64,000 nt of DNA from Kineosporiaceae bacterium. Lineage in GTDB: Bacteria; Actinomycetota; Actinomycetes; Actinomycetales; Kineosporiaceae. Under the pieces are notes generated by a model. That model saw only the letters and a list, made by a program, of their open reading frames with translations. It was not told the origin of the DNA and made no database searches. Location: contig JAEUJN010000054.1 of NCBI GenBank assembly GCA_016794595.1, positions 24,595 through 88,594 on the forward strand, given 5' to 3'. The translations under genes and the position numbers were made by a program. This document shows, piece after piece, positions 13,437-64,000 of the stretch; positions within the stretch are counted from its first letter, which is position 1, and each line of letters opens with the position of its first letter.

Positions 13437-13484
13437 CCAGCGCACGGCGTCCGGTGTTCCCCGCCCGACGACGGCCCACCCCCA

Positions 13485-13589: not shown

Positions 13590-13600
13590 AGTGCGGGCGG

Positions 13601-15288: not shown

Positions 15289-15293
15289 ACGGG

Positions 15294-16094: not shown

Positions 16095-16167
16095 GGCTGT
16101 TGCCTCCCGAGGCGCCGCGGAGGCCGAGATGACCGCCAGGGTCGACCCTAGCCCGCGTTCCCCGCGA

Positions 16168-40849: not shown

Positions 40850-40870
40850 CTCCCTCAGATCCGCACCGGC

Positions 40871-43402: not shown

Positions 43403-43560
43403 GCGCCCCACGGTAGGGCAGCCGAGGGCATGGCGGGCGGGTGGCGGCCAGGTGACGATCAGGTTCACCCCCGCAAGGAAAGGGCCGCCTTACCGGGGTG
43501 TTCACCGGCTGGTCGTCCAATGGGTACCTGCTGGTGGCCTGACCCGGACACCTTTCCCAG

Positions 43561-43962
43561 ATGCCTGCACGCTTCCAGTACTACCGCCACCAGAAGGGGT
43601 GGTACTGGCGGCTGCTCGGGGCCAACAACCGGACCATCGCCGTCGGACCCGACCCTTTCGCCGAGCGGACAGCCGCGGTCCGGGACTCCCTCGAGGTGTG
43701 CGTGCTGGCGATGCGAGCCGGGTTCGAGCTCTCCGAGGAGGGCCGCACCTGGTCTTGGTCGATGGTGGACCGCGGGCAGCCGCGCGCCGGCTCCCCCAAT
43801 CGCTACGGGCGCCGGATCGACTGCGAGCGGGCGGTCCGCCAGTTCCGTGACGCGGCCCGCGAGGCCCTGCGCGCCGCCCGCGAGGCCTCGCAGACCCGTG
43901 CCCCCACCCCGGTGGACGGGGGCCTCGCCACCACGACCGTGCCCGACACTTCTGTGTCGTGA
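43561..43962 (+). CDS. Tandem YegP/DUF1508-like protein
   Basis: Two repeats of the pattern FxxYxxxxGxWxWRL ... N...IA (ARFQYYRHQKGWYWRLLGANNRTIAV and a second, weaker repeat). Confidence 0.55.
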   Translation: MPARFQYYRHQKGWYWRLLGANNRTIAVGPDPFAERTAAVRDSLEVCVLAMRAGFELSEEGRTWSWSMVDRGQPRAGSPNRYGRRIDCERAVRQFRDAAREALRAAREASQTRAPTPVDGGLATTTVPDTSVS

Positions 43963-44912: not shown

Positions 44913-44916
44913 GGGC

Positions 44917-46185: not shown

Positions 46186-46217
46186 CCTGACCTGACCTGG
46201 CGCGCTGCGCCGGCCCG

Positions 46218-46625
46218 TCAGCTCAGGACGAAGGCCGCCACGACCAGGGCGAGGGAAATCACGGCGAACACCACGCCCCCGACGATGTAGGTCCGCGACC
46301 TGGCCGGCCCGGTCAGCACGGTCTGCGGCCTGCGCGGGTCGTAGACCACGGCGATCGCCTTGTCGGTCGGGAAGGGGCGCACCGAGGCGGTATCGCCTAC
46401 GGCCCGAACCGATCTGCCGCGCTGGGTGCGGAAGGTGACCACCGGGTGATACACCACCCGGCCGCTCGGGTCCGTGGTCGAGCGGCTGTCCACGATGGTG
46501 CCGACCGCTCCCTCCCCCGTGCGGCGCAGTTCGGGTTCGGTGAGCCGGGAGCGCACTCCCGCGGCCACCATGCCGATCGCGCCCAGCAGCGGGAACAGCG
46601 ACACCCACAGAACGAAGGTCCTCAC
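46218..46625 (-). CDS. DUF3592-like membrane protein
   Basis: TM helix, a beta-rich segment (GTIVDSRSTTDPSGRVVYHPVVTFRT...AIAVVYDPRRP) and a second TM helix. GTG 46625 overlaps the MFS stop. Confidence 0.6.
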   Translation of the reverse strand: MRTFVLWVSLFPLLGAIGMVAAGVRSRLTEPELRRTGEGAVGTIVDSRSTTDPSGRVVYHPVVTFRTQRGRSVRAVGDTASVRPFPTDKAIAVVYDPRRPQTVLTGPARSRTYIVGGVVFAVISLALVVAAFVLS

Positions 46626-47854
46626 GGCAGTGAGGCTACGCGAGCCGGAACCTCCTCCGGCAGCCCGCTGGTGACCTTGCCGGGCACCCGGCGCCAGGCC
46701 AGGGGCACCGCGATCAGCAGGACCAGGGTGACCAGCATGACGCCGACGAAGGGCAGCCAGTCGGCGATGCCGAACGCGGCGCCGCACACCCCGGCCGAGA
46801 CCGCGACCGCCGCCGTCTGCACCGCCGTGAACACTCCCTGGGCGCGACCGGCCGCCTGGACCGGGACGTGTTGGGTGAGCAGTGACTGGGCAGCGGGGAC
46901 GGCGAACACGAAGCCCAGCGACTCGACCATGCCCAGCCCGATCAGCCAGGACACGCTGGGCAGGAAGGGGTACAGCCCGGCGAACAGGCTGCCGCTGAGC
47001 AGGCCGCCCATCACCAGCACCCGCCGGTCGCTGCGATCCGCGAGCCAGCCGGCGAACGGGGCCACCACGGCGAACGGGAGCGCGAACAGGGTCCACGACA
47101 GGCCGATCTGGGTCTCGCTGGCGCCGCGGGCATCCATCAGCAGCGACCAGCAGGCCTCGTAGACCCCGGTCAGCGTGCCCCCGACCACGGCCACCACCAG
47201 CACGCCGGCCAGCGCCCGCGCCGCCAGGCCGCGGCGGGGCAGGCGCGCGGCCGCGGCGTCCGGGTCACCGGCGAGTGCGGCCCCGGCGACCCGCGAGGCC
47301 AGTACGGGGATGCAGGCGAGCAGCGCGGCCCCGGCCGAGATCACGAACAGCACGCCCATGTGCTCGATGCCCACAGCGGCGCCGAGCATCGGGCCGGCCG
47401 CGATCCCGGCCAGCTCGGCTCCGCTGATCAGGGCGTAGGCCCGGCCACGGGCCTGCAGCGGGACGACCCGGGCGACCAGCGCGAGGCAGGCCACCTGGGC
47501 GGCCCCGGCCGCTGCTCCCTGGGCTCCGCGCAGAACGAGGTAGCCCCACCCGTTGACCTCGGCCAGGAATCCCGCGCTGGCGACGGCATAGCCGACCAAC
47601 CCGCCGACCAGGACGCGGCGGTGGCCGATCCGGTCCCCGAGGCGGCCGGACAGGTACTGGGCGACGACCCCGGTGGCGAAGAACGAGGCCATCACGGTGC
47701 CGATCAGCGCGGTCGAGGTACCGCGCCCGGACAGGTAGATCGGCAACAGGGGCAACACGGCCGAGGCGCCGGTCCACTGCAGGAAGACGGCGGCGGACAG
47801 GGCCAGCACCACCAGGGCACCACTGCCGGCGAGCAGGGAGCGCAGCGGTCTCAC
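46622..47854 (-). CDS. MFS transporter (drug-efflux-like)
   Basis: 12 TM helices and the motif GRLGDRIGHRRVLVGG. GTG 47854 overlaps the TetR stop. Only the last 411 codons of track ORF 46622..48469 are used. Confidence 0.85.
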   Translation of the reverse strand: MRPLRSLLAGSGALVVLALSAAVFLQWTGASAVLPLLPIYLSGRGTSTALIGTVMASFFATGVVAQYLSGRLGDRIGHRRVLVGGLVGYAVASAGFLAEVNGWGYLVLRGAQGAAAGAAQVACLALVARVVPLQARGRAYALISGAELAGIAAGPMLGAAVGIEHMGVLFVISAGAALLACIPVLASRVAGAALAGDPDAAAARLPRRGLAARALAGVLVVAVVGGTLTGVYEACWSLLMDARGASETQIGLSWTLFALPFAVVAPFAGWLADRSDRRVLVMGGLLSGSLFAGLYPFLPSVSWLIGLGMVESLGFVFAVPAAQSLLTQHVPVQAAGRAQGVFTAVQTAAVAVSAGVCGAAFGIADWLPFVGVMLVTLVLLIAVPLAWRRVPGKVTSGLPEEVPARVASLP

Positions 47855-48426
47855 GATTGCTCCCGGGGGGCATGGTCGACCAGCAGGCGCAGACGGTGGG
47901 CTACCTGCTCGCGGAGCTGGGGGGAGAGGCCGTCGATGCCGAACAACTCGCACAGCCACAACCCGTCGGCCGCGAGCCTGGCAATGGTCGCGGCCACCGG
48001 ATCGGCGGACTGCTCGATCTGGTGCTGCCAGCCGCCGAACGCGGCGCGCAGAGGGGCGAGCAGCGCCGGCTCCGCGGCGATCGCCGCGATCAGGGCCGAG
48101 CCCACCCGCTCCTCGTGCGGCACAGGTTCCCCCTCGGCCGGGGCGGCGAGGCACTCCTCGAGGTAGGCCCGGGCGAAGGAGTAGTGGGGATGCGCGGCGC
48201 GCACGTCGTCCATGCCGGCCTGGAAGCGGGTGGCGAGCCGTTCGACCATGGCCGCGACCAGGTCGTTGCGGGTCGCGAAGTGGTAGAGCACGCCACCCTT
48301 GCTGACTCCCGCCCGTGCAGCGGCCTTCTCCAGGGTCAGTCTGGCCACGCCATCGGCGATCACCACGTCCTCGGCAGCTCGCAGGATCAGCTCCCGCGTC
48401 GTCGCACTGTCCCGCTTCCTCGCCAC
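47851..48426 (-). CDS. TetR/AcrR-family transcriptional regulator
   Basis: N-terminal HTH: TRELILRAAEDVVIADGVARLTLEKAAARAGVSKGGVLYHF. Confidence 0.92.
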   Translation of the reverse strand: MARKRDSATTRELILRAAEDVVIADGVARLTLEKAAARAGVSKGGVLYHFATRNDLVAAMVERLATRFQAGMDDVRAAHPHYSFARAYLEECLAAPAEGEPVPHEERVGSALIAAIAAEPALLAPLRAAFGGWQHQIEQSADPVAATIARLAADGLWLCELFGIDGLSPQLREQVAHRLRLLVDHAPREQS

Positions 48427-48448
48427 CCCGCAACGCTACCACCAACTG

Positions 48449-48464
48449 TACCGTCCAGACGGTA
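48449..48464. promoter_or_regulatory. Candidate TetR operator palindrome
   Basis: TACCGTC-CA-GACGGTA (7-bp perfect arms), 23-38 bp upstream of the tetR ATG. Confidence 0.55.
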
Positions 48465-48470
48465 AACATC

Positions 48471-48580
48471 CCCCAACCTGCTCATGCTCCGCAGCCGACC
48501 CGTCATGCTCCGCGGGTGAGGTGTTGACATCGTTGTCGGACGACGCCGCGCGTCACCCACGGAGCATGAGCAGGTTGGGG
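48471..48580. repeat. Copy B of the ~105-bp palindromic intergenic element
   Basis: The ends are CCCCAACCTGCTCATGCTCCG ... CGGAGCATGAGCAGGTTGGGG. A second TCATGCTCCGC unit lies exactly 21 bp after the first. The core is TGACATCGTTGTC. Confidence 0.8.
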
Positions 48581-48614
48581 ACGCCGGTCGGGCGGCGGGC
48601 GGGGGGCGGCGAGG

Positions 48615-49487
48615 TCAGCGGGCGGTGATCGCCTCGTGGAAGGCCAGCACGCGACGGGCCGTGTCGACGTGCAGGTTCTCGACCATGCGGCCGTTGTGCA
48701 CCACCACGCCCTTGCCCTCGGCGTTGGCCGCCTCGAAGGTGGCGATCAGCGCCCGGGCATCCTCGACGGCCGCCTCGGACGGCGCCCAGGCCTCGTTGCA
48801 CGGCCCGATCTGCCCCGGGTGGATCAGGGTTTTGCCGTCGAAGCCCAACTCCACGCCCTGGCGGCACTCGGCGGCGAAACCCTCGGCGTTCTTCACGTCG
48901 TTGTAGACCCCGTCGAGGATCGCCTTGCCGGTCGCCCGCGCGGCGAGCAGGCACAGCCCGAGCCCGGTCAGCAACGGCTGGCGGCCCGGGACATGTTCGG
49001 CGCGAAGCTCTTTGGCCAGGTCATTCGTTCCCATCACCAGCACGGCGAGTCGCTCGCTGGCGGCCGCGATCTGCTCGCAGTACAACATCGCGATCGGGGT
49101 CTCGACCATCGCCCAGATGAAGGTGTGGTCCGGCGCGCCGGCCGCCTCCATCGCGGCCTCGATGGTGCGCACGTCCTGCACGGAGGAGACCTTGGGGACG
49201 ACGATCCCACCCGGCCCGGCCTGGCTCGCCGCGACGATGTCGTCGGCAAACCAGTCGGTGTCCAGGCCGTTCACCCGGATGGTGAGCTCCTTGCGGCCGT
49301 ACTCCCCCGAGGTCGCCGCCGCGCAGACGCGTTCGCGCGCATCGGCTTTGCCGTCCGGAGCCACCGAGTCCTCGAGATCGAGGATCAGCGCGTCGGCGTC
49401 CAGGGCCTTGGCCTTCTCGAGTGCTCGTTCGTTGGCGCCGGGCATGTACAGCACGCTGCGCCGCGGGGTGAGGCTGGGGTCGGTCAC
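48615..49487 (-). CDS. HpcH/HpaI aldolase / CitE-like acyl-CoA lyase or thioesterase
   Basis: RSVLYMPGANERALEKAKALDADALILDLEDSVAP, MVETP, IHPGQI. Confidence 0.85.
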   Translation of the reverse strand: MTDPSLTPRRSVLYMPGANERALEKAKALDADALILDLEDSVAPDGKADARERVCAAATSGEYGRKELTIRVNGLDTDWFADDIVAASQAGPGGIVVPKVSSVQDVRTIEAAMEAAGAPDHTFIWAMVETPIAMLYCEQIAAASERLAVLVMGTNDLAKELRAEHVPGRQPLLTGLGLCLLAARATGKAILDGVYNDVKNAEGFAAECRQGVELGFDGKTLIHPGQIGPCNEAWAPSEAAVEDARALIATFEAANAEGKGVVVHNGRMVENLHVDTARRVLAFHEAITAR

Positions 49488-49498
49488 GCTGGTCTCCT

Positions 49499-50563
49499 TC
49501 AGAAGCCGTAGGCGGCAGCGAGTTCGGGGTCACGGGCAGCCAGCGCCCGGGCGAGGTCGACCTGCACCTGGCACTGCTTGCAGGAGGCGTCGTCCTCCAT
49601 CCGGCCGTCGAGCATGACCGCGCCGGTGCCGTCCCCCATGGCCTCGATCACCCGCAGGGCGTGCCTGACGTCCTTGGGGTCGGGGGAGAACACCTTCTTG
49701 GCGATGTCGACCTGCACCGGGTGCAGGCTCCAGGCGCCCACGCACCCCAGCAGGAAGGCGTTGCGGAACTGGTCCTCGCAGGCCACGACGTCCTTGATGT
49801 CGCCGAACGGGCCGTAATAGGCGTAGATGCCGTGGGTGGCGCAGGCGTCCACCATGCGCGCGATCGTGTAGTGCCACAGATCCTGCTGGAAGATCCCCCG
49901 GTCGGCCGTGTAGGCCAGGGCGCCGTCGTCCAGGGCCGGCGGGTCCTCGCGGACCAGGTAACCCGGGTGCCCGCCGCCGACCCGGGTGGTCTTCATCCGC
50001 CGGTTGGCCGCGAGGTCGGCGGGGCCGAGCGAGAGGCCCTGCATCCGCGGGCTCGCGCCGCAGATCTCCTCGACATTGGCCACACCGCGCGCGGTCTCGA
50101 GGATGGCGTGGATCAGGATCGGGCGGGTCAGCCCCGCCTTCGCCTCGAGCTGGGCGAGTAGCCGGTCGACATAGTGGATGTCCTCGGCGCCCTCGACCTT
50201 GGGCACCATGACGACGTCCAGCTTGCGCCCGATCGCCGGGACCAGCGTGGTCAGGTCGTCGAGCACCCAGGGCGAGTCGAGCGCGTTGACCCGGGTCCAC
50301 AACTGGGTGTCTCCGAAGTCGGTCGAGGAGGCGATCGCCACCAGCCCGGCGCGCGCGGCCTCCTTGTTCTCCGCCTTGACCGCGTCCTCCAGATTGCCCA
50401 GCAGGACGTCGACCTGGGCGGCCATCTGCGGCACCTTGGCGGCCATCTTGGCGTTCGAGGGATCGAAGAAGTGGATCATCCGTGAGGGCCGGAACGGGAT
50501 CTCCCGGGGCGGGGTCGGTGCCCCGACGGCGAGCGGACGGAAGAAGTCCTTCGGAGGGCGCAT
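49499..50563 (-). CDS. mclA: L-malyl-CoA/beta-methylmalyl-CoA lyase-like (Chloroflexus MclA type)
   Basis: Near-collinear with Chloroflexus aurantiacus MclA as I remember it: [90 protein letters not shown]. Start at ATG 50563. Confidence 0.8.
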
Positions 50564-50742
50564 GGCGATCAGCCTAGGGGCGGGCAGGATGCCCATTGCG
50601 TCGCGCTGGTCACACCCGGCGAACCGCTCTCGATACTCGATCGGGCGGCCACATGAGGCTTTTGCGGTCATTCATCGCTAGGGTGACCTCGCCCGGGGGG
50701 CGCATCGGCGCCCCGGCCACCCGGGCACCTCGGGAGGCCGAC

Positions 50743-51585
50743 GTGACGTTCAACGATCCAGGCGATGCCCCGTCGACGGGTGCGCCCCCTTCGGAGATCA
50801 ACCAGATCGTCCCTCAGTCGGCCCGGATCTATGACTACCTGCTCGGCGGCAAGGACAACTACGAGTGCGACCGAGCGGTCGGCGACGCCCTGATGCGGCA
50901 GTTGCCCGCCCTGCCGGTCATGGTTCGGGCCCAGCGCAGCTTCCTGGCACGCGCCGTCCGGTACCTGATCGCCGACGCGGGGGTTCGTCAGTTCCTCGAC
51001 ATCGGCACCGGGATCCCCGCCGCCGAGAACGTGCACGAGGTCGCTCAGTCGCTCGCCCCTGACGCGCGGGTGCTCTACGTGGACAACGACCCCATCGTGC
51101 TCGCCCACGCCCGAGCCCTGACGAGCAGCACCCCCGAGGGGGCGACCGCGTTCATCCAGGCCGACCTGCGCCGGCCGGAGACGATCCTGGAACACCCGCT
51201 CCTGGCGGCAACCCTCGATCACGATCTGCCCGTCGCCCTGATGCTGATCGGCATCCTGCACCACGTGCGTGACGACGACGATCCGTACGGGCTCGTCGCC
51301 AGGCTGGTCGACTGGCTGCCCACGGGCAGCTACGTCACCATCGCCGGCCCGGGATCGGACTTCGACCCGGCCGTGATGAGCGCCGTCGCGGCGTCCGCCG
51401 AACAGTCGGGAATCCCGTACGTGGCTCGTTCCCACGAGCAGACCCTGAGGTTCCTCGACGGGCTGCAATTGGTCGAACCGGGACTTGTCCCCATCCAGAG
51501 CTGGCGCCCGGACGTCGAGGGGGCGCCGGACGTCTACGGCTGGGCCGGGATGGCACGCAAGGGTGCCCGCGCCCAGGCCGGCTGA
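50743..51585 (+). CDS. SAM-dependent methyltransferase (actinobacterial DUF574 / Methyltransf_19-like)
   Basis: ARIYDYLLGGKDNYECDR, QFLDIGTGIP, VLYVDNDPIV. GTG 50743 is preceded by GGGAGG. Confidence 0.8.
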   Translation: MTFNDPGDAPSTGAPPSEINQIVPQSARIYDYLLGGKDNYECDRAVGDALMRQLPALPVMVRAQRSFLARAVRYLIADAGVRQFLDIGTGIPAAENVHEVAQSLAPDARVLYVDNDPIVLAHARALTSSTPEGATAFIQADLRRPETILEHPLLAATLDHDLPVALMLIGILHHVRDDDDPYGLVARLVDWLPTGSYVTIAGPGSDFDPAVMSAVAASAEQSGIPYVARSHEQTLRFLDGLQLVEPGLVPIQSWRPDVEGAPDVYGWAGMARKGARAQAG

Positions 51586-51597
51586 CCGCGAGCAGGT

Positions 51598-52944
51598 TCA
51601 GGCCTCGCCCCAGGCGCGGGCGATCGCGCGGGTCAGGGCCCGGGGGACGCCGCCGGCGGTGCGCAGGGGCTGATGGCGACCGTCCTCGACCACGGTGCGT
51701 CCACCGACCACCACCGTGTCGACGTCGGAGGCGGAGGCCACCAACGGGATCTGGGTGGGCATCGCACCGGCGGTCCGCAGCGAGTCCAGCCGGACCCCGA
51801 CCAGGTCGCACAGCGAGCCCACCTCGAGCCGTCCGGCCTCGGGCCAGCCCAGGGCAGCGTGCCCGGACGCCGACAGCGAGGTGATCAGCTCCTCCACCGA
51901 GAACCGGCCGCGCCGCCCCGAGGCCAGCCGCTCGTGCATCTCGAGCATCCGGGACTCACCGATCATGTCGATCATCACGTGCTGGTCGGTGCCCAGGGCG
52001 ATCGGCGCCCCGGCGTCGGCCAGCTCGCGCGCCGGCCCGATGCCGTCCGCCAGGTCCTGCTCGGTGCTGGGACAGATGCAGGCCGTGGTCTGGGATTCCC
52101 CGAGCAGCCGGATGTCCCCGGGCGTGAGGTGGGTGGCGTGCACCGCGGTGGTCGCCGAACCCAGCACGCCGTGGTCGGCGAGCAACTGGGTGGGCGTGCG
52201 CCCGTAGGCGGCCACGCACGAGGCGTTCTCGGCCGGCTGCTCGGAGACGTGCACGTGCAACGGGCGGGGTGCGCCGTCCTCGCCGACGTCCGCCTCGACG
52301 ATCACCGACAGCTCCTCGACCGGGACGGCGCGCACCGAGTGCACGGCGGCGGCCACCCGGAACCGCTCGTCGTCGGCCAGCTCGCTGACCCGCATCGCCC
52401 AGCTCTCGGCGTCCCCGTCGTCGAAGCGCCGCTGGACCCCCTCGAGCGGGATGTCGATCCCGCCGCGCAGGTAACAGGTGTCCAGCAAGGTCATCCGCAA
52501 CCCGGCCACCGATGCGGCCTCCCGCAGCGCCTCCCCCATGGCGTTCGGCTCGCCGTAGCGGGCACCACCGGGGCCGTGGTGCAGGTAGTGGAACTCCCCC
52601 ACACACGTGATCCCGGACAGCACCATCTCGGAGAACACGGCCGTGGCCAGCTCGCAGTAGGTGTCCGGGGTGAGCCGGTCGGCCAGGGCGTACATCCGGT
52701 CGCGCCACGTCCAGAAGGTGCCGCCCTCGGTGTGCGTGCGCCCGCGCAGCGCCCGGTGAAAGGCGTGCGAGTGCGTGTTCGCGAACCCGGGCAGCACCAT
52801 CAGGGCGAGTTGGACGTCGCCGGGCTCGGGTCGGGTGTCGATCTGGATGGCGGTGATGCGGCCGTCCTCGCCGCAACTGATCCTCACCCCATCGGCTGGG
52901 CCCTTGGGCAACCAAGCGTGGGCGCACCACCACGTGCGGTTCAC
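51598..52944 (-). CDS. hutF: Formimidoylglutamate deiminase
   Basis: AHAWLP..., PGFANTHSHAFHRALRGR, HVHVSEQ, GTDQH. Amidohydrolase fold in a hut context. Confidence 0.85.
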   Translation of the reverse strand: MNRTWWCAHAWLPKGPADGVRISCGEDGRITAIQIDTRPEPGDVQLALMVLPGFANTHSHAFHRALRGRTHTEGGTFWTWRDRMYALADRLTPDTYCELATAVFSEMVLSGITCVGEFHYLHHGPGGARYGEPNAMGEALREAASVAGLRMTLLDTCYLRGGIDIPLEGVQRRFDDGDAESWAMRVSELADDERFRVAAAVHSVRAVPVEELSVIVEADVGEDGAPRPLHVHVSEQPAENASCVAAYGRTPTQLLADHGVLGSATTAVHATHLTPGDIRLLGESQTTACICPSTEQDLADGIGPARELADAGAPIALGTDQHVMIDMIGESRMLEMHERLASGRRGRFSVEELITSLSASGHAALGWPEAGRLEVGSLCDLVGVRLDSLRTAGAMPTQIPLVASASDVDTVVVGGRTVVEDGRHQPLRTAGGVPRALTRAIARAWGEA

Positions 52945-53047
52945 GGTCGCATCCTGCCGTGTCCGGACGTGCGGCGCATCACCTCTGCCGCGGAACCGCC
53001 CGTCAGGCCCAGCCCCCGGGCATCGCCGAGGTGAACCGTGCGTGAGC

Positions 53048-55036
53048 TCAGCGCAACGACACCGCGCTCTCGCTCACCACGGCCCTCCCGGTCCCCGTGG
53101 TGGCCAGCACGCGCACGGTGACACTGTCGCCGGGCAGGTGGCCGACCGGCAGGTCGACGGAGGCCTCGCTCAACCCCACGGCGACCGTCTGCCAGGACTG
53201 CCCGCCGTCAGTGCTGAGCTGCACGGCGTAGCGCTGGGACGGCGGGGCCGCCGCAGCGTCCCAGGCCAGGTGCAGGACGCCACCGCTGACCACGGGCGGG
53301 GCCGCCCCGAACGCCGGGGCGTCGTTGCGGACCGCCGCGGGCTCAGCGGGTGCGCCGCCGATCGGGTGCTCGGCGACCACCGCGCCGTTCAGCAGGAGCT
53401 GCAGTCGGGCCGCGCCGTCCGGGTCGGGCAGGTCGACGTCCACCGTGCCGGTGACCTCCTGATCGGGGGCCTCGCACGCGCTGCGGCGCAGCGGCACCGT
53501 GAGCTGTTCGAGAACGGTGTCGTCCGCGGCCAGGATGCGCACCGCGACCTCACCGGCCGGATCGGGCCCGGCAGCCTCGGGCGAGTCCCCTCCGCCGAAG
53601 TCGGAGGAGGGCAGCACCGCCGCGACCTCGGCCGTCCCGCGATCGAGGTTGAGCGAGGCGATCAAGCGCATGGTCGGTGATCCTCCAGGTGGGGCAGCGG
53701 CGCCGGCTGCTGCCAGCCCCAGGGCCGCTGCCGGGCCGGCGGGCAGGGCGTCCTCGGCGATCAGCCGGTCGTGGATCCCGGTGTAGGTGAACGCACTGAG
53801 CCACTGGTTGTCGCAGTAGCTCATCACGTCGTGCGAGCTGACGGGCGGGACGACGCGCAGCGGCAGGCCGAGCGCGGCGTCCCCGGTGTCGATGCCGACG
53901 AAGGCCTCGTCGGCATCGGAGAGCTGACCGTTCGGGTAGGGGTAGGGGGCACCGCCGCCGGCGCCGCAGAACTCGGCATGGAAGCGTCCGAGGGTGTGGC
54001 CCAGTTCGTGGGCGCCGTACCAGTCACCGTAGGAACCGTCGGTGTCCCAGGCGAATCCGGATGCCGCGGCCGGCCCGGAGGCGACGGTGCCGGGCTGGGG
54101 GGTCCCGGGGATGTCGGAGGCGAGCCCGCGCATGAAGAACCCGTCGGCGTCGACCATGCCGTAGTAGTGCGTCCGGGCGTCGGTCCCGGTGGCCACGTCG
54201 ACCGCCCGCAGGGCCAGCAGTTGGGCGTTGACCTGCGAGGCATCGAACTCGACCGGGGCACTCGCCGGGACGGTCACGGTGGTCAGCTCGACCCGGCTGA
54301 CCGGATAGGCGCGCCGCAGCCAGGACCGCAACAACTCGACGTCCGTGGTCGAGGGGGTGAAGGTGACCCCGTCCTGCACGTACGAGAGCAGGACCAACCG
54401 AAGCCGGAACGGCACCGCCGGGCCGAGAGTGAACCGGCGGCGGCGGACACCGGCCACGGACGGCACCGCGCCGGACCCGACGGCCCGGATCAGCCGGCCC
54501 ATCCGAAGGTAGAGCGGACCGGGGGTGGACACCAGGTCGTCGGGTAGCCGGAAGTTCAGGCTGAAGCCGAGATCGGCTCGGCGCGAACGCAATTGCGCAG
54601 GCGAGGTGCCCGAGCGGGACGGATCCAGCCGAGCTGTGCCGAGGGAGGCGACCGCCTGCCAGGGACCGGACGGCGACCGCGCCGCCAGGAGTTCGCCGCG
54701 CAGGGTGATCGCCCCTGCGGGCCGGCTGAGGTAGGCGCGCACGATGGTGGCCTTGCCCGCCACCAGCGGGACGGTGTGGGACAGGTCCTGGATCTCCTGG
54801 GTCACCTCGAGCCCGTCCAGGCGGACCACCGGCAGCAGCGGGACGCCGGCGGGCGCCGCGCGGCGTGCCCCGCCGTCCGGAGTCGACGAGGCCAGTGCTC
54901 GCTCGATCAGGCGTTCGGCGCCGGCCTCGTCATCCGCGACGGGGTCCTCTGCGAGCGCTCTGGTCAGTGCGCGGGCAAGTGCGGTCTCCTGACGCTGCTG
55001 CCTGGACACCCGCCGCCGTGACAGATCGAGTCCCAT
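53048..55036 (-). CDS. Large signal-less protein with a metzincin-type zinc-peptidase motif and a C-terminal Asp-box beta-domain
   Basis: HELGHTLGRFH fits HExxHxxGxxH. It is followed by SSHDVMSYC (Met-turn-like) and a C-terminal LSTDGGQSWQTV (SxDxGxxW Asp-box). The RBS GGGGGAGG precedes the ATG at 55036. The N-terminus (MGLDLSRRRVSRQQRQETALARAL) is not a signal peptide. Confidence 0.55.
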   Translation of the reverse strand: MGLDLSRRRVSRQQRQETALARALTRALAEDPVADDEAGAERLIERALASSTPDGGARRAAPAGVPLLPVVRLDGLEVTQEIQDLSHTVPLVAGKATIVRAYLSRPAGAITLRGELLAARSPSGPWQAVASLGTARLDPSRSGTSPAQLRSRRADLGFSLNFRLPDDLVSTPGPLYLRMGRLIRAVGSGAVPSVAGVRRRRFTLGPAVPFRLRLVLLSYVQDGVTFTPSTTDVELLRSWLRRAYPVSRVELTTVTVPASAPVEFDASQVNAQLLALRAVDVATGTDARTHYYGMVDADGFFMRGLASDIPGTPQPGTVASGPAAASGFAWDTDGSYGDWYGAHELGHTLGRFHAEFCGAGGGAPYPYPNGQLSDADEAFVGIDTGDAALGLPLRVVPPVSSHDVMSYCDNQWLSAFTYTGIHDRLIAEDALPAGPAAALGLAAAGAAAPPGGSPTMRLIASLNLDRGTAEVAAVLPSSDFGGGDSPEAAGPDPAGEVAVRILAADDTVLEQLTVPLRRSACEAPDQEVTGTVDVDLPDPDGAARLQLLLNGAVVAEHPIGGAPAEPAAVRNDAPAFGAAPPVVSGGVLHLAWDAAAAPPSQRYAVQLSTDGGQSWQTVAVGLSEASVDLPVGHLPGDSVTVRVLATTGTGRAVVSESAVSLR

Positions 55037-55183
55037 TCCTGCCTCCCCCTGCCCGAGCCGTCCGGACGGGCGGCTGTCTGCAGGTCAGAGCCTCGGGGGC
55101 GGGCCGTGATACGGCGGTGTGCAGGTCTCACCAGGGGAACGGCACCAACGCAGCGTCGGTGAAGGCGCCCCCGACGAGGGCTC

Positions 55184-56422
55184 TCACTCCACGGCCAGCA
55201 AACGGGTCAGCACCGCGGCCAGCGCCTGGGCCCCCATCTCGCAGTCGTCGGGCTCGGCGTACTCCGCCGGGGAGTGCGAGACCCCGGTCGGGTTGCGCAC
55301 GAACAGCATGGACGACGCCACTCCCGCCTGCGCGAGCACCCCGGCGTCGTGCCCCGCGCCGGTGGGCAGGACCGGGACCGGGCCCGAGCCGAGAGCGGCA
55401 CCGACGGCACCGGCCACCTCAGCCGCCAGGTCGGCGGGGAAGACGGTGGCCGCCGTCCAGGATTCCTGCACCGCCGCCTGCCCGATCGCCGCTTCCACGT
55501 CGACCAGCACGGCCCGCACCTGCTGCTCGGTGTCGGCGCGCACGTCCACCCACGCCCTCACCCCGGACGGGATGGCGTTCACCGCGTTCGGTGCCACCTC
55601 GACCTTGCCCACCGTGGCCAGCGCACCGTGACCGGACGCCGCGGCCCGCGCCACCGAGATCACCGTGGCCAGGGCGAGCATCGGATCATCCCGGTCGGCC
55701 AGCAGGGTGGTGCCGGCGTGATCGGCCCGGCCGGCCAGGTCGAGCCGGAACCGCCCGTGTGGCCGGATCGCGCTGGCCACCCCGACCGGCACGTTCAGCT
55801 CGGGCAGGGCGAGCGCGCGGCCCTGCTCGACGTGCAGTTCGACGAAACACCCCACCCGGCGCAGGGTCTCGTCGTCCCGGCCCATGTGGTCCGGGTTCAG
55901 CCCGCCGGCCCGGGCGGCCTCGGCATAGCTGACCCCCTCGGCGTCCCGCAGGGCCAGCACCGATGACGGGGCACTGATCCCGCTGAGCAACCGGCTCCCC
56001 GAGCAGGCCAGCCCGAACCGGGCGCCCTCCTCGTCGACGAACCGCACCAGCCCCAACGGACGTCCTCGAGCAGCGATCGCCTCGTCCAGAATTCCGTTGT
56101 CCCGCAACGCCTCGACGGCGACCAGCGCGGCCGCGACCCCCAGGGGACCGTCCATCGGGCCCCCGTCGGGCACCGAGTCGAGATGGCTTCCGGTGACCAC
56201 CCCCGGCCTGCCGCGGGCGGCCGCCCGGTCCGGATCGCCCCACCAGGCCCACTGGTTCCCACACCGGTCCACGGTGACGTCCGCCCCGAGTGCCCTCACC
56301 CGCGCGGCGAACCACTCGCCCAGGGCGACGTCGTCCGCGGTGAAGGCGAATCTGCGGTATCCACCCGTGATCCGGTCGCGGCCGATGGTCGCGATCTCCT
56401 CCAGCAGGCCAGTGACCCTCAT
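55184..56422 (-). CDS. M20-family amidohydrolase (allantoate amidohydrolase / N-carbamoyl-amino-acid hydrolase type; probable N-formylglutamate-hydrolysing step of hut)
   Basis: TGSHLDSVPDGGPMDGPLG, FVDEEGARFG, ELHVEQG, DHAGTT, GAGHDAG. Positioned between hutU and hutF. Confidence 0.8.
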   Translation of the reverse strand: MRVTGLLEEIATIGRDRITGGYRRFAFTADDVALGEWFAARVRALGADVTVDRCGNQWAWWGDPDRAAARGRPGVVTGSHLDSVPDGGPMDGPLGVAAALVAVEALRDNGILDEAIAARGRPLGLVRFVDEEGARFGLACSGSRLLSGISAPSSVLALRDAEGVSYAEAARAGGLNPDHMGRDDETLRRVGCFVELHVEQGRALALPELNVPVGVASAIRPHGRFRLDLAGRADHAGTTLLADRDDPMLALATVISVARAAASGHGALATVGKVEVAPNAVNAIPSGVRAWVDVRADTEQQVRAVLVDVEAAIGQAAVQESWTAATVFPADLAAEVAGAVGAALGSGPVPVLPTGAGHDAGVLAQAGVASSMLFVRNPTGVSHSPAEYAEPDDCEMGAQALAAVLTRLLAVE

Positions 56423-57816
56423 TGCTCAGCACCCTTCATGGTCGGGCCCGACGCCTCGGGCACCCGGGACAGCACGGCCTCGAGCACCGGCGTCGCCAGG
56501 GCGAGCCGGTGCGCCCGGATCACCAGGTCCCACAACGGCTCGAACTTCCTCCAGCCCGCGGCATAGGCCAGGTGTTTGGCGCGGTGGCGGGCCGAGGCGT
56601 GGGTGCCCGCGGCGCGCGCGATGGCCGACCAGCGGTAGAAATCCCGATAGGCCCGGTGGTAGCCGTCCAGCAGTTGCCCGGCGGTGAGCCGTGCCGGACG
56701 GTACACGACGTGGCGGGTGTCGTACTCGTCCCAGTCGTGGCTGGTGATCCGGCCCTGGGCAGCCAGCATGTCGTGGAGCCGCGTTCCCGGGTACGGGGTC
56801 TGGATGTGAAAGGTGCACGTGGTCACCCCGTGATCGACCGCCCAGCCGACCGTGCGGTCGAAGACCTCCGGCCCGTCGTCGTCCATCCCGAACACGAACG
56901 ATCCGTTGATCATCACTCCCAGGTCACTCAGCCGCCGGGCCACCGCGGCATAGTCACGAGACAGGTTTTGGTGCTTGTTGCCGGCGCGCAGGTTCGCCGG
57001 GCTGAAGGTCTCGAACCCCACGAACAGGCTGCGCAGGCCCGCCTCGGCGGCCCGCTCGATCAGGTCACCCCGCAACACCGAGTCGACCGTGGCTGCCCCC
57101 TGGAAGATCCGGTTCATCCCGCGCATCCCCGCGAACAGCTCCCGCGCGAACCGGGCATTACCGAGCAGGTGATCGTCCAGGAAGTACAGGTGCCGGCCCG
57201 GCAGACGATCGATCTCGGCCAGAGCGGCATCGACCCGCTGGACGTAGAAACCGTCACCGCCGGCGAAGAAGGCATCCTTGTAACAGAAATCGCAGTGCCG
57301 AGGACACCCGCGGGAGACCACGATCGAGTTGGGCACCAGATACCGGTTGCGCCGGATCAGCTCGCGCCGCACCGGCGGCAGGTCCTGGATCGTGCGCCCA
57401 TGGGTCGAGACGTACCTGGACGCCGGGTGCCCGGCCCGCACATCAGCCAGGAATGCCGGGAAGGTCTGCTCCCCCGGCCCGAGGAACACGTGGTCGGCGT
57501 GCCCGGCCGCCTCCTCGGGCAGAGAGGTCACGTGCAGCCCGCCGAGGGCGACCCGGCATCCCTTGGCGCGGTAGTGATCCGCGATGGCGTAGGCGCGTCG
57601 GGCATTGGTGATGTAGACCTGGATCACCACCAGGTCGGGGACGTCGTCCAGGTCGAGCCGCTCGACGTGATCGTCGACCAGCTGCGCCTCGTCGTCCGGG
57701 CCCAGGTGGGCCGCGAGCGTCGCCAGCCCCAACGGCGGGAAGAGGGAGTACTTGACCGGGCGCCAGGCCGGGCTCCTCGCCTCGGCCAGCGCCGGCAGGA
57801 TGAACTTGACGAACAT
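56419..57816 (-). CDS. B12-binding-domain radical SAM protein
   Basis: The N-terminal Rossmann-like region (KYSLFPPLGLATLAAHL ... DLVVIQVYITNA ... VALGGLHVT) precedes the radical SAM cluster motif GCPRHCDFC. The stop overlaps the M20 start (ATGA). Confidence 0.85.
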   Translation of the reverse strand: MFVKFILPALAEARSPAWRPVKYSLFPPLGLATLAAHLGPDDEAQLVDDHVERLDLDDVPDLVVIQVYITNARRAYAIADHYRAKGCRVALGGLHVTSLPEEAAGHADHVFLGPGEQTFPAFLADVRAGHPASRYVSTHGRTIQDLPPVRRELIRRNRYLVPNSIVVSRGCPRHCDFCYKDAFFAGGDGFYVQRVDAALAEIDRLPGRHLYFLDDHLLGNARFARELFAGMRGMNRIFQGAATVDSVLRGDLIERAAEAGLRSLFVGFETFSPANLRAGNKHQNLSRDYAAVARRLSDLGVMINGSFVFGMDDDGPEVFDRTVGWAVDHGVTTCTFHIQTPYPGTRLHDMLAAQGRITSHDWDEYDTRHVVYRPARLTAGQLLDGYHRAYRDFYRWSAIARAAGTHASARHRAKHLAYAAGWRKFEPLWDLVIRAHRLALATPVLEAVLSRVPEASGPTMKGAEQ

Positions 57817-57855
57817 TCCTGGAATCCCTCCCCGACGGATCGATCCCGGCAGCGA

Positions 57856-59580
57856 TCAGCTCCCCTCACCCTCTGGCTCACTCTCCCGCATGGGCACTCG
57901 AACCCCCCGCTCGGACGCCACGCGGATCGCCTCGGGATAGCCCGCGTCCACGTGCCGGATCACTCCCATCTCCGGGTCGTTGGTCAGCACTCGGGCCAGT
58001 TTGGCTGCGGCGAGCGGGGTTCCGTCCGCGACGCTGACCTGACCGGCGTGAATCGACCGTCCGATCCCGACGCCGCCGCCGTGGTGGATCGAGACCCACG
58101 TGGCCCCGGACGACGCCGCGACCAGCCCGTTGAGCAACGGCCAGTCGGCGATCGCGTCCGACCCGTCGAGCATGGCCTCGGTCTCCCGGTAGGGGCTGGC
58201 CACCGAGCCGCAGTCGAGATGGTCCCGCCCGATCACGATCGGCGCGCTGATCTCACCCGAGGCGACCAGTTCGTTGAACCGCAGCCCGGCGACGTCCCGC
58301 TCGCCGTGACCCAACCAGCAGATCCGCGCCGGCATCCCCTGGAAGGCGACCTTCTCGGACGCCGCACGCAGCCACTTCTGCAGGTGGTCGTTGTCGGGGA
58401 ACAACTCCGCGACCGCGCGGTCGGTCACCGCGATGTCGCGCGGGTCGCCGGACAGTGCCGCCCAGCGGAAGGGACCCTTGCCCTCGCAGAACAGCGGGCG
58501 GATGTAGGCCGGCACGAACCCCGGGAAGGCGAAGGCGCGCTCGTAACCACCCTGGCGCGCCTCGTCGCGGATCGAGTTGCCGTAGTCGAACACCTCGGCT
58601 CCGGCGTCCAGGTACCCGACCATCGCCTCGACGTGTCGGGCCATCGAGGCCCGGGCCCGGTCGGTGAACTCCTCCGGCTTGGCCTCGGCGTAGTCGTGCC
58701 AGTCGGCCAGGTCGGTGCCCTCGGGCAGGTAGGCCAGCGGGTCGTGCGCACTGGTCTGGTCGGTGACGATGTCGACCTCGACGCCACGGCGGAGCAGTTC
58801 GGGGAGCACGACCGCGCAGTTGCCGACCAGCCCCACTGACAGGGCGCGGCCCTCGGCCTTGGCGGCGAGCACCCGGCGCAGCGCGTCGTCCAGGGCCGCC
58901 TCCCCCTCGCCGGTCGCCAGCTCGTCCAGGTACCGGGTCTCCACCCGGCGCTGCAGCCGGTGCGGGTCGACGTCCACGACCAGGCAGACCCCGTCGTTCA
59001 GGGTGACCGCGAGCGGCTGGGCCCCACCCATTCCGCCACAGCCCCCGGTCACGGTGAGCGTGCCCCGCAGGCTGCCCCCGAACCGCTTGGCCGCCACCGC
59101 GGCGAAGGTCTCGTAGGTGCCCTGCAGGATGCCCTGGGTGCCGATGTAGATCCAGGACCCTGCGGTCATCTGCCCGTACATGGTCAGGCCGAGGTGCTCC
59201 AGGCGCCGGAACTCCGGCCACGTGGCCCAGTCGCCGACCAGGTTGGAGTTGGCGATCAGCACCCGGGGCGCCCACTCGTGGGTGCGCATCACCCCTACCG
59301 GCCGGCCGGACTGCACCAGCAGCGTCTCGTCGTCCGCCAGGCTGGTCAGCGTGCGCACGATGGCGTCGAAGCTCGCCCAGTCGCGGGCGGCCTTGCCGGT
59401 GCCGCCGTAGACGACCAAGTCGTCGGGCCGCTCGGCGACGTCCGGGTCGAGGTTGTTCATCAGCATGCGCAGCGGCGCCTCGGTCTGCCAGGAGCGCGCG
59501 GTCAACCGGGTCCCGCGCGGGGCACGGACCGAGCGGACGACACGGGCCTCGTGCGGGTCGGGCGGGGTCGAGGCGCTCAT
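57856..59580 (-). CDS. hutU: Urocanate hydratase
   Basis: [49 protein letters not shown] 59580 is preceded by AAGGAG; the upstream part of the track ORF is discarded. Confidence 0.97.
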
Positions 59581-59682
59581 CGCAGTCTCCTTCGGGACGT
59601 CACCGGTCCACGCCGTCCTCCGCGTGGTGAGTCCACGCTGCCCTGCCGGCGCCCGGTCCGACATCCCTCGACCCGGTGATGC

Positions 59683-59700
59683 TGTCTGAGATGCCAGACA
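59683..59700. promoter_or_regulatory. Candidate hut operator palindrome upstream of hutU
   Basis: TGTCTG-AGATGC-CAGACA, nested inside an outer inverted repeat ACCCGGTGA (59671-59679) / TCACCGGGT (59705-59713). The same TGTCTG-N6-CAGACA lies upstream of hutH. Confidence 0.55.
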
Positions 59701-59734
59701 CCCCTCACCGGGTCGGTTCGTCGGAGATGATGGG

Positions 59735-60397
59735 GTGATGCCGAGCCCACGCGCCACGCCTGTCAGGACGCTGGTCGCGGCCATCGCGTTGCTCCCCGCA
59801 ACGGCCTGGCCCGCTCCCGCGGCCACGACCCCGGCCACCCTCCCACCCTTCACCTACAACGTGCACCGGGTGAGCGCGGCCGAACTCGGGGCATCGTGGC
59901 GTTCGGGATGCCCGGTCGCCCCGTCCTCCCTGCGCCGGATCAGGATGACCCACCTGGGCTGGGACGGCCGGGCCCGCACCGGGGATCTCGTGGTGCACAA
60001 CGACATCGCCGGACCGACCGTGGTCGCCTTCCGCCGGCTCTACACCCAGCGCTTCCCGATCCGGTCGATGCGCCCGATCTCGGTCTTCGGCGGCTCCGAC
60101 GACCGGTCGATGGCCGCCGACAACACCTCGGGATTCAACTGCCGCAAGGTCACCGGCGGCACGGGGTGGTCGCGACACGCCTTCGGGCGCGCGATCGACC
60201 TCAACCCGGTCGAGAACCCCTACGTGAAGGGCGCCACCGTGCTGCCGCCCGCCGGTGCCGCCTACGTCCGCCGCACCCCGGCCCGCAAGGGCATGCTGGT
60301 CGCCGGCACCCTGCCGGTCACCACCTTCACCGGCTACGGCTGGAGCTGGGGCGGAAACTACCGCTCGCTGAAGGACTTCCAGCACCTCGAACGTTGA
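59735..60397 (+). CDS. Secreted M15-family (VanY / D-Ala-D-Ala carboxypeptidase-like) metallopeptidase
   Basis: Signal peptide ([20 protein letters not shown]), [13 protein letters not shown], and the C-terminal DFQHLE. Confidence 0.7.
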
Positions 60398-60406
60398 GGG
60401 ACGGCT

Positions 60407-62005
60407 TCAGACGAGCTCGCCCACCACCGCCTCGGCCGCGCCGGCCACCGCACCGGAGCGCACCAGGCGGGACACCAGCTCGATCTCGGGCGCGAGGTGA
60501 CGATCCGGGCCGGGGTCCCCGATACCGTTGCGGCGCATCAGGTCCACGACCGCTGCGCCGGCCGGCGAGGGGGCCAGCGGAGCCCGCAGCGCCAACGCCC
60601 GGGTGCCGGCCAGCACCTCGATCGCCAGGACGGCGCCCAGCGCCTCGACCGCGCGCCGCAGCTTGCGCGCTGCGTGCCAGCCCATCGAGACGTGGTCCTC
60701 CTGCATCGCCGAGGAGGGGATCGAGTCGACGCTGGCCGGCACCGCGAGCCGCTTCAGCTCGCTGACCAGCCCGGCCGCCGTGTACTGGGCGATCATCAGC
60801 CCGGAATCCACCCCGGCATCGGCCGCCAGGAACGGCGGCAGCCCGTGGCTGCGCGCGCGGTCGAGGAACCGGTCCGTGCGCCGCTCACTGATGCTCGCGA
60901 CGTCCGCGGCGGCAATGGCCAGGAAGTCGAGCACGTACCCGACCGGCGCCCCGTGGAAGTTCCCGTTGCTCTCCACCCGCCCGTCCAGGGTCACCACCGG
61001 GTTGTCGATCACGGAGGCCAGCTCGCGCTCGGCCACGGCCTGCGCGTGATCCAGGGTGTCCCGGGCCGCGCCGTGCACCTGCGGGGAGCACCGCAGCGAG
61101 TAGGCGTCCTGCACCCGGGTGCAATCCGGCGTCCGGTGGCTGTCCATGATCGCGGACGACGCGAGCAGCCGCCGCAGGTTGTCCGCGCTGGCCGCCTGTC
61201 CGGGGTGGGGACGCAGAGCCATCAGGTCGGCCGCGAAGGCTCGGTCGGTGCCCAGCTGGGCCTCGACCGAGAGCGCGGCCGCGACGTCCGCCGTGCGCAG
61301 CAGCAGCCGCAGGTCGGCGAGCGCCAGGGCGAGCATGCCCAGCATGCCGTCGGTCCCGTTGATCAGCGCCAGACCTTCCTTGGCACCCAGGGTCAGCGGC
61401 CTCAGGCCCGCCTGCGCCAGCGCCTCGGCGGCCGGACGGCGAACGCCCGCGACATCGGTCACCTCGCCCTCCCCGCAGGCGGTCAGGGCGATGGCGGACA
61501 GCGGGGCCAGGTCACCGGAACACCCCAGCGACCCGAACTCGTGCACGTCGGGGGTGATCCCGGCATTCAGCATGCCCGCGTAGAGCTCGACCGTGGCCGG
61601 CCGGACGCCGGTGCGGCCACTGGCCAGGGTGCGCAAGCGCAGCACCATCAGCGCCCGCACCACCTCGGGCTCGACCAGCGTGCCGGCGCCCGCCGCGTGC
61701 GAACGGATCAGGGAGCGCTGCAGCCGCTCACGATCGGCTGGGGCGATGTGCCGCGTCGCGAGTGCCCCGAAACCGGTCGAGACGCCGTAGACCGGACGCT
61801 CGGCCGCCGCCAGTTCCTCGATGACGGCACGGGTGGCAGCCACCCCGGCGAGCGCGGCGTCGGCGAGCACCACCGGAGCGCCGTGCCGGGCCACCGCCAC
61901 CACCTGCCGAACGCTCAGCGGCGAGGCATCCACGACGACTGCGGACGGCGGGGCCACATCCAGGGGGCCCAGGGGGCCCGAGGGAACGGTCATGCCGTGC
62001 AGCAC
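60407..62005 (-). CDS. hutH: Histidine ammonia-lyase
   Basis: YGVSTGFGALA, the MIO-forming region GSLGCSGDLAPLS (Cys-Ser-Gly instead of the textbook Ala-Ser-Gly), NGTDGM and QEDHVSMG. Confidence 0.95.
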   Translation of the reverse strand: MLHGMTVPSGPLGPLDVAPPSAVVVDASPLSVRQVVAVARHGAPVVLADAALAGVAATRAVIEELAAAERPVYGVSTGFGALATRHIAPADRERLQRSLIRSHAAGAGTLVEPEVVRALMVLRLRTLASGRTGVRPATVELYAGMLNAGITPDVHEFGSLGCSGDLAPLSAIALTACGEGEVTDVAGVRRPAAEALAQAGLRPLTLGAKEGLALINGTDGMLGMLALALADLRLLLRTADVAAALSVEAQLGTDRAFAADLMALRPHPGQAASADNLRRLLASSAIMDSHRTPDCTRVQDAYSLRCSPQVHGAARDTLDHAQAVAERELASVIDNPVVTLDGRVESNGNFHGAPVGYVLDFLAIAAADVASISERRTDRFLDRARSHGLPPFLAADAGVDSGLMIAQYTAAGLVSELKRLAVPASVDSIPSSAMQEDHVSMGWHAARKLRRAVEALGAVLAIEVLAGTRALALRAPLAPSPAGAAVVDLMRRNGIGDPGPDRHLAPEIELVSRLVRSGAVAGAAEAVVGELV

Positions 62006-62048
62006 ACCATCGAGCAGAGGCGGACGGGGACCCCCGAACGCTCGATGC

Positions 62049-62066
62049 TGTCTGTCATCTCAGACA
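62049..62066. promoter_or_regulatory. Candidate hut operator palindrome upstream of hutH
   Basis: TGTCTG-TCATCT-CAGACA, preceded by GATGC exactly as at the hutU site. It lies 44-61 bp upstream of the hutH start. Confidence 0.55.
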
Positions 62067-62217
62067 CCTCGGACCCGCCGGGTCACGACCACTGGGGGCC
62101 CTCTAGTGTGAGGGTCGCAACACCCCGAATGGGGTCGGGCCACCGGTAAAGTATCTTGACGTCGAGATTCTTGCGGCACATTCACGCCAGCACGTCGAAG
62201 CCAGCAAAGGAGCTGTG

Positions 62218-64000
<1,783 letters not shown>

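Follow-up and report, generated by a model that had tools for sequence, protein, structure and literature searches.

We analyzed a 64,000-nucleotide stretch of DNA from contig JAEUJN010000054.1 of a Kineosporiaceae bacterium (the whole stretch is called the window here; it has a GC content of about 73%), which carries all five genes of the actinobacterial five-step histidine utilization (hut) locus interleaved with three other genes. On the minus strand, the order is hutH, hutU, a gene for a B12-binding radical S-adenosylmethionine (SAM) protein, an M20-family hydrolase gene, a gene for a 662-aa protein with a HExxHxxGxxH motif, hutF, and then, at a distance, hutI. The third additional gene encodes an M15-family peptidase and lies between hutH and hutU. 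We consider it probable that this locus is a standard hutH-hutU-M20-hutF-hutI operon with a HutR-type operator that has been loosened by the accretion of passenger genes. Real genes were told apart from shadow open reading frames by their GC content at the three codon positions and were named with Pfam and NCBIfam profiles. The hut genes and the genes between them are:

60407-62005, minus strand: hutH (histidine ammonia-lyase); TIGR01225, 641 bits against a cutoff of 539
59735-60397, plus strand: inserted M15-family peptidase gene; PF13539, 68.2 against 25 bits; N-terminal hydrophobic leader
57856-59580, minus strand: hutU (urocanate hydratase); TIGR01228, 880 bits against a cutoff of 375
56419-57816, minus strand: inserted B12-binding radical SAM gene; PF02310, 36.8 against 32.1 bits, and PF04055, 41.8 against 29.5 bits
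55184-56422, minus strand: M20 amidohydrolase gene; NF006770 (“allantoate amidohydrolase”), 496 bits against 372
53048-55036, minus strand: inserted gene for a 662-aa putative zinc metallopeptidase; HELGHTLGRFH, Ig/Fn3-like domains, no signal peptide
51598-52944, minus strand: hutF (formimidoylglutamate deiminase); NF006681, 596 bits against 362, and TIGR02022, 434 against 413
42164-43468, minus strand: hutI (imidazolonepropionase); TIGR01224, 360 bits against 298

HutH, HutU, HutI, and HutF each exceed curated equivalog cutoffs, and every gene named in a preliminary description of this DNA was found either where that description had placed it or within a few codons. The start it chose for hutI, at 43402, is as possible as the one given above, and the hutU ATG at 59580 is preceded by a GAAGGAG ribosome-binding site. 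Wherever a relative has both hutU and hutF, the M20 gene sits between them, and canonical HutG was not seen among the genes examined. Based on this synteny, we presume that the M20 protein is the hydrolase of the last step, acting on N-formylglutamate. An NCBI record entitled “MAG: Kineosporiaceae bacterium” matches the radical SAM protein at 100% identity, and contigs from sequencing runs SRR10555721 and DRR784957 contain an identical radical SAM-M20 junction with proteins that are 100% identical to those of the window. The SRR10555721 contig additionally holds the 662-aa gene and hutF.

For the comparison of gene order, we scanned a genome collection with the M20 protein and retrieved 80 loci with 10-kb flanks from Kineosporiaceae, Pseudonocardiales, Geodermatophilaceae, Streptosporangiaceae, and other groups, onto which all window proteins were mapped. 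The usual order among these loci is hutH-hutU-M20-hutF-hutI on a single strand. In Streptomyces, hutU, the hydrolase gene, hutF, and hutI are contiguous and hutH is located elsewhere, and the preliminary description had assumed an ancestral unit of this kind, led by hutU; the relatives show instead that hutH comes first. At each junction we counted the relatives that hold both flanking genes and called the pair contiguous if the gap was no more than 300 bp:

hutH/hutU junction: both genes in 35 relatives, contiguous in 33
hutU/M20 junction: both genes in 59 relatives, contiguous in 36
M20/hutF junction: both genes in 77 relatives, contiguous in 66
hutF/hutI junction: both genes in 53 relatives, contiguous in 47

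The M15 gene is found between hutH and hutU in none of the 35 relatives, the radical SAM gene at the hutU/M20 junction in none of the 59, and the 662-aa gene at the M20/hutF junction in none of the 77. Because no relative has any of the three at these positions, comparative gene order indicates that all of them are lineage-specific insertions, and the earlier proposal that the radical SAM and 662-aa genes had entered a conserved operon is borne out by the synteny of the relatives. The case of one Kineosporiaceae contig (L034) is instructive on this point: an isocitrate dehydrogenase gene (positions 1-777) adjoins hutH there, as it does in the window, and despite this common neighborhood hutH-hutU-M20 is uninterrupted. 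The corresponding gene of the window is:

62215-64000, plus strand: partial gene for a monomeric isocitrate dehydrogenase, divergent from hutH; delimited by reading frame and GC profile

We take this gene to be an isocitrate dehydrogenase from the look of its N-terminal sequence rather than from a family scan. Compared with the 80 related loci, the hut genes of the window retain their relative order and strand. The window departs from the standard locus in that the M15, radical SAM, and 662-aa genes are interleaved, hutI stands 8.2 kb off, a gene on the opposite strand cuts hutH off from the others, and the operator is present in two copies. Other variations on the standard order occur among the relatives. 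Loci from Nonomuraea, Streptosporangium, and related genera (L049-L082) have no adjacent hutH and have 1-5 kb between hutU and M20, a recurrent break in the operon; an RpiR-like regulator and a short-chain dehydrogenase gene are found in the region around this gap. Locus L010 has two tandem copies of hutF upstream of hutH (1582-4300).

The junction between the radical SAM gene and the M20 gene carries a trace of how it may have formed. The stop codon of the former and the start codon of the latter overlap as ATGA, which the preliminary description had taken as a translational coupling that the radical SAM gene had newly acquired. The overlap is real, but it has a counterpart of the same geometry in L005-L009, the closest relatives, where the stop of hutU and the start of M20 already share a GTGA. 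The 3′ end of the radical SAM gene contains one further feature:

56419-56460, minus strand: C-terminal tail of the radical SAM protein, PEASGPTMKGAEQ, with its stop codon; likeness to the hutU tail

Family homology of the window protein stops at ...LEAVLSRV, after which PEASGPTMKGAEQ runs to the stop; in every other homolog, SRV is followed by T or S and then by 18-35 residues of variable sequence. The tail in the window is similar to the end of hutU in L005 (RVPMREGATS, then stop); only about 0.1% of shuffles score as well as its local alignment with the L005 DNA, and the alignments to L006-L009 are weaker. In the hutU of the window itself, RVPMRE is kept and is followed by a new 8-codon C-terminal tail (SEPEGEGS, then stop). 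The tail and stop codon of the radical SAM gene are probably derived from the 3′ end of the ancestral hutU. Because the overlap in L005-L009 has the same geometry and the radical SAM tail resembles that of hutU, we infer from these short similarities that the coupling to M20 was inherited and did not evolve anew. In the mechanism we propose, the radical SAM gene would have entered the final codons of hutU, perhaps at a CGGGTG microhomology, and would have lost its own 3′ end. Its reading frame would then extend across what remains of the hutU tail and end at the ancestral stop codon of hutU, which overlaps the M20 start, and the takeover of this stop would keep M20 translationally coupled. Apart from the operator repeat described below and the short hutU-tail similarity, we found no convincing repeats or mobile-element ends flanking the inserts.

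The M15 gene between hutH and hutU had also been reported in the preliminary description. The gene is present at this position, but its strand has to be corrected to plus: third-position GC is 0.92 for the plus-strand gene versus 0.63 for the minus-strand open reading frame, which is a shadow. The M15 gene converges on hutH, the two stop codons being 9 bp apart, and diverges from hutU. Because it is inserted in the opposite orientation, it likely splits hutH from hutU in transcription, so that hutH would now form a unit of its own, cut off from the rest of the pathway.

A repeat search of the window detected a 45-nt similarity (family D3) between the regions upstream of hutU and hutH. Each of these regions contains a perfect TGTCTG-N6-CAGACA palindrome, and no further copy occurs in the 64 kb:

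62049-62066: ancestral HutR-type operator, TGTCTGTCATCTCAGACA, upstream of hutH; perfect palindrome
59683-59700: second HutR-type operator, TGTCTGAGATGCCAGACA, about 100 nt upstream of hutU; perfect palindrome

The two copies set the window apart from its relatives, which have at most one palindrome per locus. Among the 16 sites found in relatives, 15 are located roughly 50-200 nt upstream of hutH and one (L010, position 8201) is located between hutH and hutU. The box is conserved upstream of hutH (L005-L078) in Kineosporiaceae, Pseudonocardiales, Geodermatophilaceae, and Phytoactinopolyspora. Background on the regulator HutR is given in PMC3350403, and the box of Corynebacterium resistens HutR, an IclR-family protein, is listed as GTCTGWWATWCCAGAC (Schroder et al. 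2012, as tabulated in PMC8222616, Table 1). The window sites fit this tabulated motif, with the shared core GTCTG-N6-CAGAC, except at the degenerate central W positions, which are richer in G and C here than in the corynebacterial entry (PMC8222616); binding of a HutR protein to the window sites is a prediction from this likeness. An IclR-family gene is located upstream of hutH, at a distance of 0.1-4 kb, in 22 relatives. A second operator before hutU is what would be expected if hut control had been restored after the M15 gene separated hutU from the hutH promoter.

From hutU onward, the genes on the minus strand are closely spaced. The spacers are 39, 147, and 103 nt; the 39-nt spacer separates hutU from the radical SAM gene, which has its own ribosome-binding site. 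Folding of four spacers gave z-scores of -0.4 to +1.5, that is, no hairpins beyond chance. A scan of positions 51000-62600 for consensus promoters and terminators returned nothing, an outcome that is expected for a high-GC actinobacterium and is uninformative. Given the 39-nt spacer with its ribosome-binding site, the lack of a terminator-like hairpin, and the HutR-type box before hutU, control of the radical SAM gene by histidine or urocanate, as originally proposed, is plausible. The corresponding transcript would be a HutR-controlled hutU-radical SAM-M20 message that possibly extends through the 662-aa gene and hutF, and the likely units of the locus would be hutH alone, this message, and hutI alone. 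The region before hutF contains a feature shared with L005:

52945-53011, minus strand: hutF upstream spacer shared with L005; the blastn match extends 67 nt 5′ of the start codon

The hutF match between the window and L005 is 86.5% identical over its whole length. In L005, the shared 67-nt spacer separates hutF from a divergent gene, and hutF may have its own promoter within this spacer.

The M20/hutF junction has received different genes in other genomes. In L005, the closest relative, it is occupied by 5 kb (11230-16180) that encode an AbiEi/AbiEii type IV toxin-antitoxin pair together with an amidohydrolase and a SnoaL-domain sigma factor. Elsewhere the cargo is a histidine kinase (L012), an MFS transporter (L046), or a low-molecular-weight phosphatase (L023), and a gap of the same size is present in six further loci (L020, L024, L026, L027, L041, and L042). 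Because the window and L005 share the 67 nt upstream of hutF, the break at this junction probably predates their split, with the cargo exchanged later. In the spacer after the M20 gene, positions 55127-55167 of the window match positions 14923-14963 of L005 (41 nt, 80% identity, E = 4e-4), and this match to the 3′ end of the L005 amidohydrolase gene may be a remnant of earlier cargo at the junction. As a separate observation, L005 has a large inverted repeat directly 3′ of the M20 stop codon. The AbiE genes of L005 prompted a reading of the junction as a defense-island hotspot, which we rejected, as nothing supports it for the window: a PADLOC scan of the three inserted genes gave no defense-system match, and a scan of the same genes against PHROGs gave only weak endolysin matches, all to the M15 protein.

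The separation of hutI appears to have a different history. As the preliminary description had stated, hutI is located 8.2 kb beyond hutF, with nine genes of mixed orientation between them:

43561-51585, mixed strands: nine-gene block between hutI and hutF; Pfam assignments

The block encodes a DUF1508-like protein, a homocysteine S-methyltransferase, CinA, a DUF3592 protein, an MFS transporter, a TetR regulator, two HpcH/HpaI lyases, and a Methyltransf_19 protein. Only 6 of the 53 loci with both genes break the hutF/hutI junction, and all six are from Kineosporiaceae-like relatives. In L007, hutF is followed by Hpc365-Hpc290-TetR-MFS-DUF3592...g317-g133, as in the window, with hutI located beyond the fetched locus, and partial versions of the block occur in L008, L009, L014, and L017. 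Because the Kineosporiaceae-like relatives share the break and L007 shares the order of the block, this gene order indicates an older, family-level rearrangement and not a recent single insertion. The preliminary description had grouped the block with the other insertions and had named an interleaved order shared by related genomes as the observation that would count against this; such an order is present in L007, and this part of its account fails. The pair of HpcH/HpaI-type lyase genes (48615-50596 in the window) stays near hut genes in Kineosporiaceae-like loci (L007-L010, 82-92% identity) in variable positions: after hutF in the window and L007, and before hutH in L008 and L009. Just downstream of hutI, at 38559-41695, are three minus-strand ECF/cobalt-type ABC transporter genes, which encode a CbiQ-like permease, a duplicated ATPase, and an ABC_cobalt component.

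The product of the inserted radical SAM gene has the hallmarks of a class B (cobalamin-dependent) enzyme: its B12-binding domain is combined with a radical SAM core, the CX3CX2C motif of which reads CPRHCDFC (C171-P-R-H-C175-D-F-C178). It reaches no named NCBIfam equivalog (HpnJ, 70 versus 578 bits; BchE, 61 versus 481; HpnR, 60 versus 650), and its best PDB relative by sequence is AprD4, with an E-value of only 1e-4. The lipid-acting class B enzymes HpnJ, HpnR, and TIGR04072 (“lipid biosynthesis B12-binding/radical SAM protein”) are its best though weak profile matches; they share its N-terminal B12 domain followed by the CX3CX2C core, and its family has isoprenoid-lipid enzymes as neighbors. 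The window protein differs from these enzymes in scoring far below every equivalog cutoff and in having no adjacent hopanoid genes. None of the 82 other loci of this radical SAM family has hut genes nearby. In about half of the loci, a gene for a UPPS-type cis-prenyltransferase, a DgkA-like kinase, or a polyprenyl-phosphate sugar transferase is directly adjacent and is often preceded by genes for an HTH_34 regulator and a 205-aa membrane protein, and in the Bacteroidota replicon Chondrinema the neighbor position is occupied by CreD. The recurrence of these polyprenyl-phosphate neighbors suggests that the family has a role in polyprenyl lipids or the envelope rather than in histidine chemistry. 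We found no published function for this family in the literature, and nothing relevant on a link between B12-radical SAM enzymes and undecaprenyl or cis-prenyltransferase. The arrangement of these loci is itself regular. In a recurrent module, the radical SAM gene comes last, after genes for the 205-aa membrane protein, the HTH_34 regulator, and one of the proteins UPPS-type cis-prenyltransferase, DgkA-like kinase, Ldi, and CreD (L003, L100, L103, L106, L112, L117, L142, L150-L152, L155, L158, L163, L164, L170, and others), and some loci have a divergent polyprenyl-phosphate sugar transferase gene instead.

The radical SAM gene was likely acquired horizontally. Its nearest named relatives are from Sphingomonadales and other Alphaproteobacteria (76-80% identity, with 77-80% for the Sphingomonadales), and a copy on a Bacteroidota replicon is 67% identical; across Actinomycetota, Alphaproteobacteria, and Bacteroidota the family is 67-80% identical. 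In a neighbor-joining tree, the window protein is on a long branch beside the sphingomonad clade and not inside it. Two arguments for transfer were tried and given up or weakened. GC content was rejected as evidence, as the dip over the gene is at codon positions 1 and 2, where it reflects amino-acid constraint, and third-position GC is a host-like 0.89. The 80% identity to Sphingomonas is weakened as proof of a recent transfer by the 67% identity that persists even in Bacteroidota and by the position of the window branch outside the sphingomonad clade.

The 662-aa protein belongs to a family of about 490 homologs for which Pfam has no model and the named members of which are actinobacterial hypothetical proteins. 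It has no Pfam or NCBIfam match, and a PDB search with its sequence returned nothing meaningful; some homologs have sub-threshold Pfam matches to Peptidase_M66 and Reprolysin_5. Ten residues (H343, E344, H347, G350, H353, H402, D403, M405, Y407, and C408) are invariant in 38 homologs, and they include a candidate Met-turn, HDVMSYC (HDxMxYC). The AlphaFold2 model has a mean predicted local distance difference test (pLDDT) score of 78.7, with confident Ig/Fn3-like domains and a poorly resolved catalytic region (pLDDT below 50 at residues 399-413), and a Foldseek search with this model found only Fn3/Ig matches in the PDB and no significant peptidase match. With metzincins and the M66 (StcE-like) and M12 families, the protein shares HExxHxxGxxH and the invariant HDxMxYC as a possible Met-turn; it differs from them in having no significant family match, no signal peptide, and a catalytic region modeled at low confidence. 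We therefore use “metzincin-like” as a motif-level, putative description. Members of the family (L085-L089) have an N-terminal beta-sandwich, C-terminal tandem Fn3/Ig-like domains, and no signal peptide. Their genomic context is not conserved; the Actinomycetospora gene, for example, adjoins DyP and LodA genes. No hut context was found for the homologs in the three genomes checked.

Based on these data, we propose that a standard hut operon preceded by a HutR operator gained three unrelated genes in this lineage only. The M15 gene would have entered between hutH and hutU, the radical SAM gene in the end of hutU, and the 662-aa gene between M20 and hutF. The inserted genes would be passengers and not enzymes of the pathway, and passenger status is the most likely reading for the radical SAM gene in particular. 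Several points weigh against parts of this account. The similarity between the radical SAM and hutU tails is short and is significant only against L005. The box upstream of hutU departs from the published motif at the W positions and is a candidate site, and a tblastn search with the IclR proteins of relatives found no hutR in the 64-kb window, although the gene may lie outside it. Co-transcription and HutR control are read from spacing and motifs. Because the shared spacer must act as a promoter region for hutF in L005, the hutU transcript may include neither the 662-aa gene nor hutF. The polyprenyl link of the radical SAM family is one of gene neighborhood, in about half of the loci, and not of biochemistry. 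Finally, selection for co-expression, that is, functional recruitment, could account equally well for the close packing of the genes and the retained coupling.

Under such recruitment, the inserts would extend histidine or peptide catabolism and would be kept under HutR control by selection. For instance, the 662-aa metallopeptidase or the M15 peptidase might free histidine from peptides, or the radical SAM enzyme might act on modified histidine, urocanate, or an imidazole intermediate. Beyond the packing (the 39-nt spacer and 4-nt overlap) and the HutR-type box upstream of hutU, this alternative can draw on the fact that the inserted genes are intact with conserved catalytic motifs and that two of the three are peptidase-like within an amino-acid catabolic operon. 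However, the hut loci of all 80 relatives do without these genes, and outside the window neither the radical SAM family (0 of 82 loci, with recurring polyprenyl-phosphate and envelope neighbors) nor the 662-aa homologs in three genomes keep company with hut genes. The overlap with M20 would have been inherited rather than evolved for the new gene, M15 is encoded on the other strand with an apparent secretion leader, and sister lineages hold clearly unrelated cargo, such as the AbiE pair, at the same junction. Taken together, we judge recruitment to be unlikely. A related idea concerns the radical SAM gene by itself: having come under hut control, it could have been rewired such that HutR, triggered by histidine or urocanate, would bring about a polyprenyl-lipid or envelope modification, or the enzyme could have been co-opted for a histidine-derived substrate. 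This we regard as quite doubtful.

An original interleaved order in which the radical SAM and 662-aa genes were already present, followed by their loss from the relatives, is highly improbable. An ancestral order has support for the block between hutF and hutI, which is present in the same order in L007 and in part in other Kineosporiaceae-like loci. For the other genes it would demand many independent and precise deletions across Kineosporiaceae, Pseudonocardiales, Geodermatophilaceae, and Streptosporangiaceae, each of which would have to restore the GTGA overlap or a short spacer; moreover, the nearest named relatives of the radical SAM protein are alphaproteobacterial and not actinobacterial, and the probable remnant of the hutU tail at the 3′ end of its gene suggests insertion. 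A chimeric contig or binning error that joined proteobacterial to actinobacterial DNA, which the sphingomonad affinity of the radical SAM protein and the fall of GC to 0.69 over its gene might suggest, is very unlikely indeed, because independent assemblies from two other sequencing runs carry the same radical SAM-M20 junction, and the gene lies between actinobacterial hut genes, one of which it overlaps in frame, and has the host-like third-position GC noted above.

Under the accretion of passenger genes that we favor, knowledge of histidine catabolism is unchanged, as the locus represents operon accretion and no new pathway. Its value would be as a clean, datable case of a conserved catabolic operon that gained foreign genes without losing its function, in which one insert landed in the last codons of a gene and took over the ancestral stop-start overlap, and in which the operator was duplicated where the transcript was broken. 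Several orders of actinomycetes share the conserved HutR-type box, descriptions of which had so far come from Corynebacterium. Lastly, two uncharacterized families emerge as leads for enzyme discovery: the highly conserved B12-radical SAM family with its putative link to polyprenyl phosphate, and the approximately 490 predicted cytoplasmic proteins that carry the HExxHxxGxxH motif.

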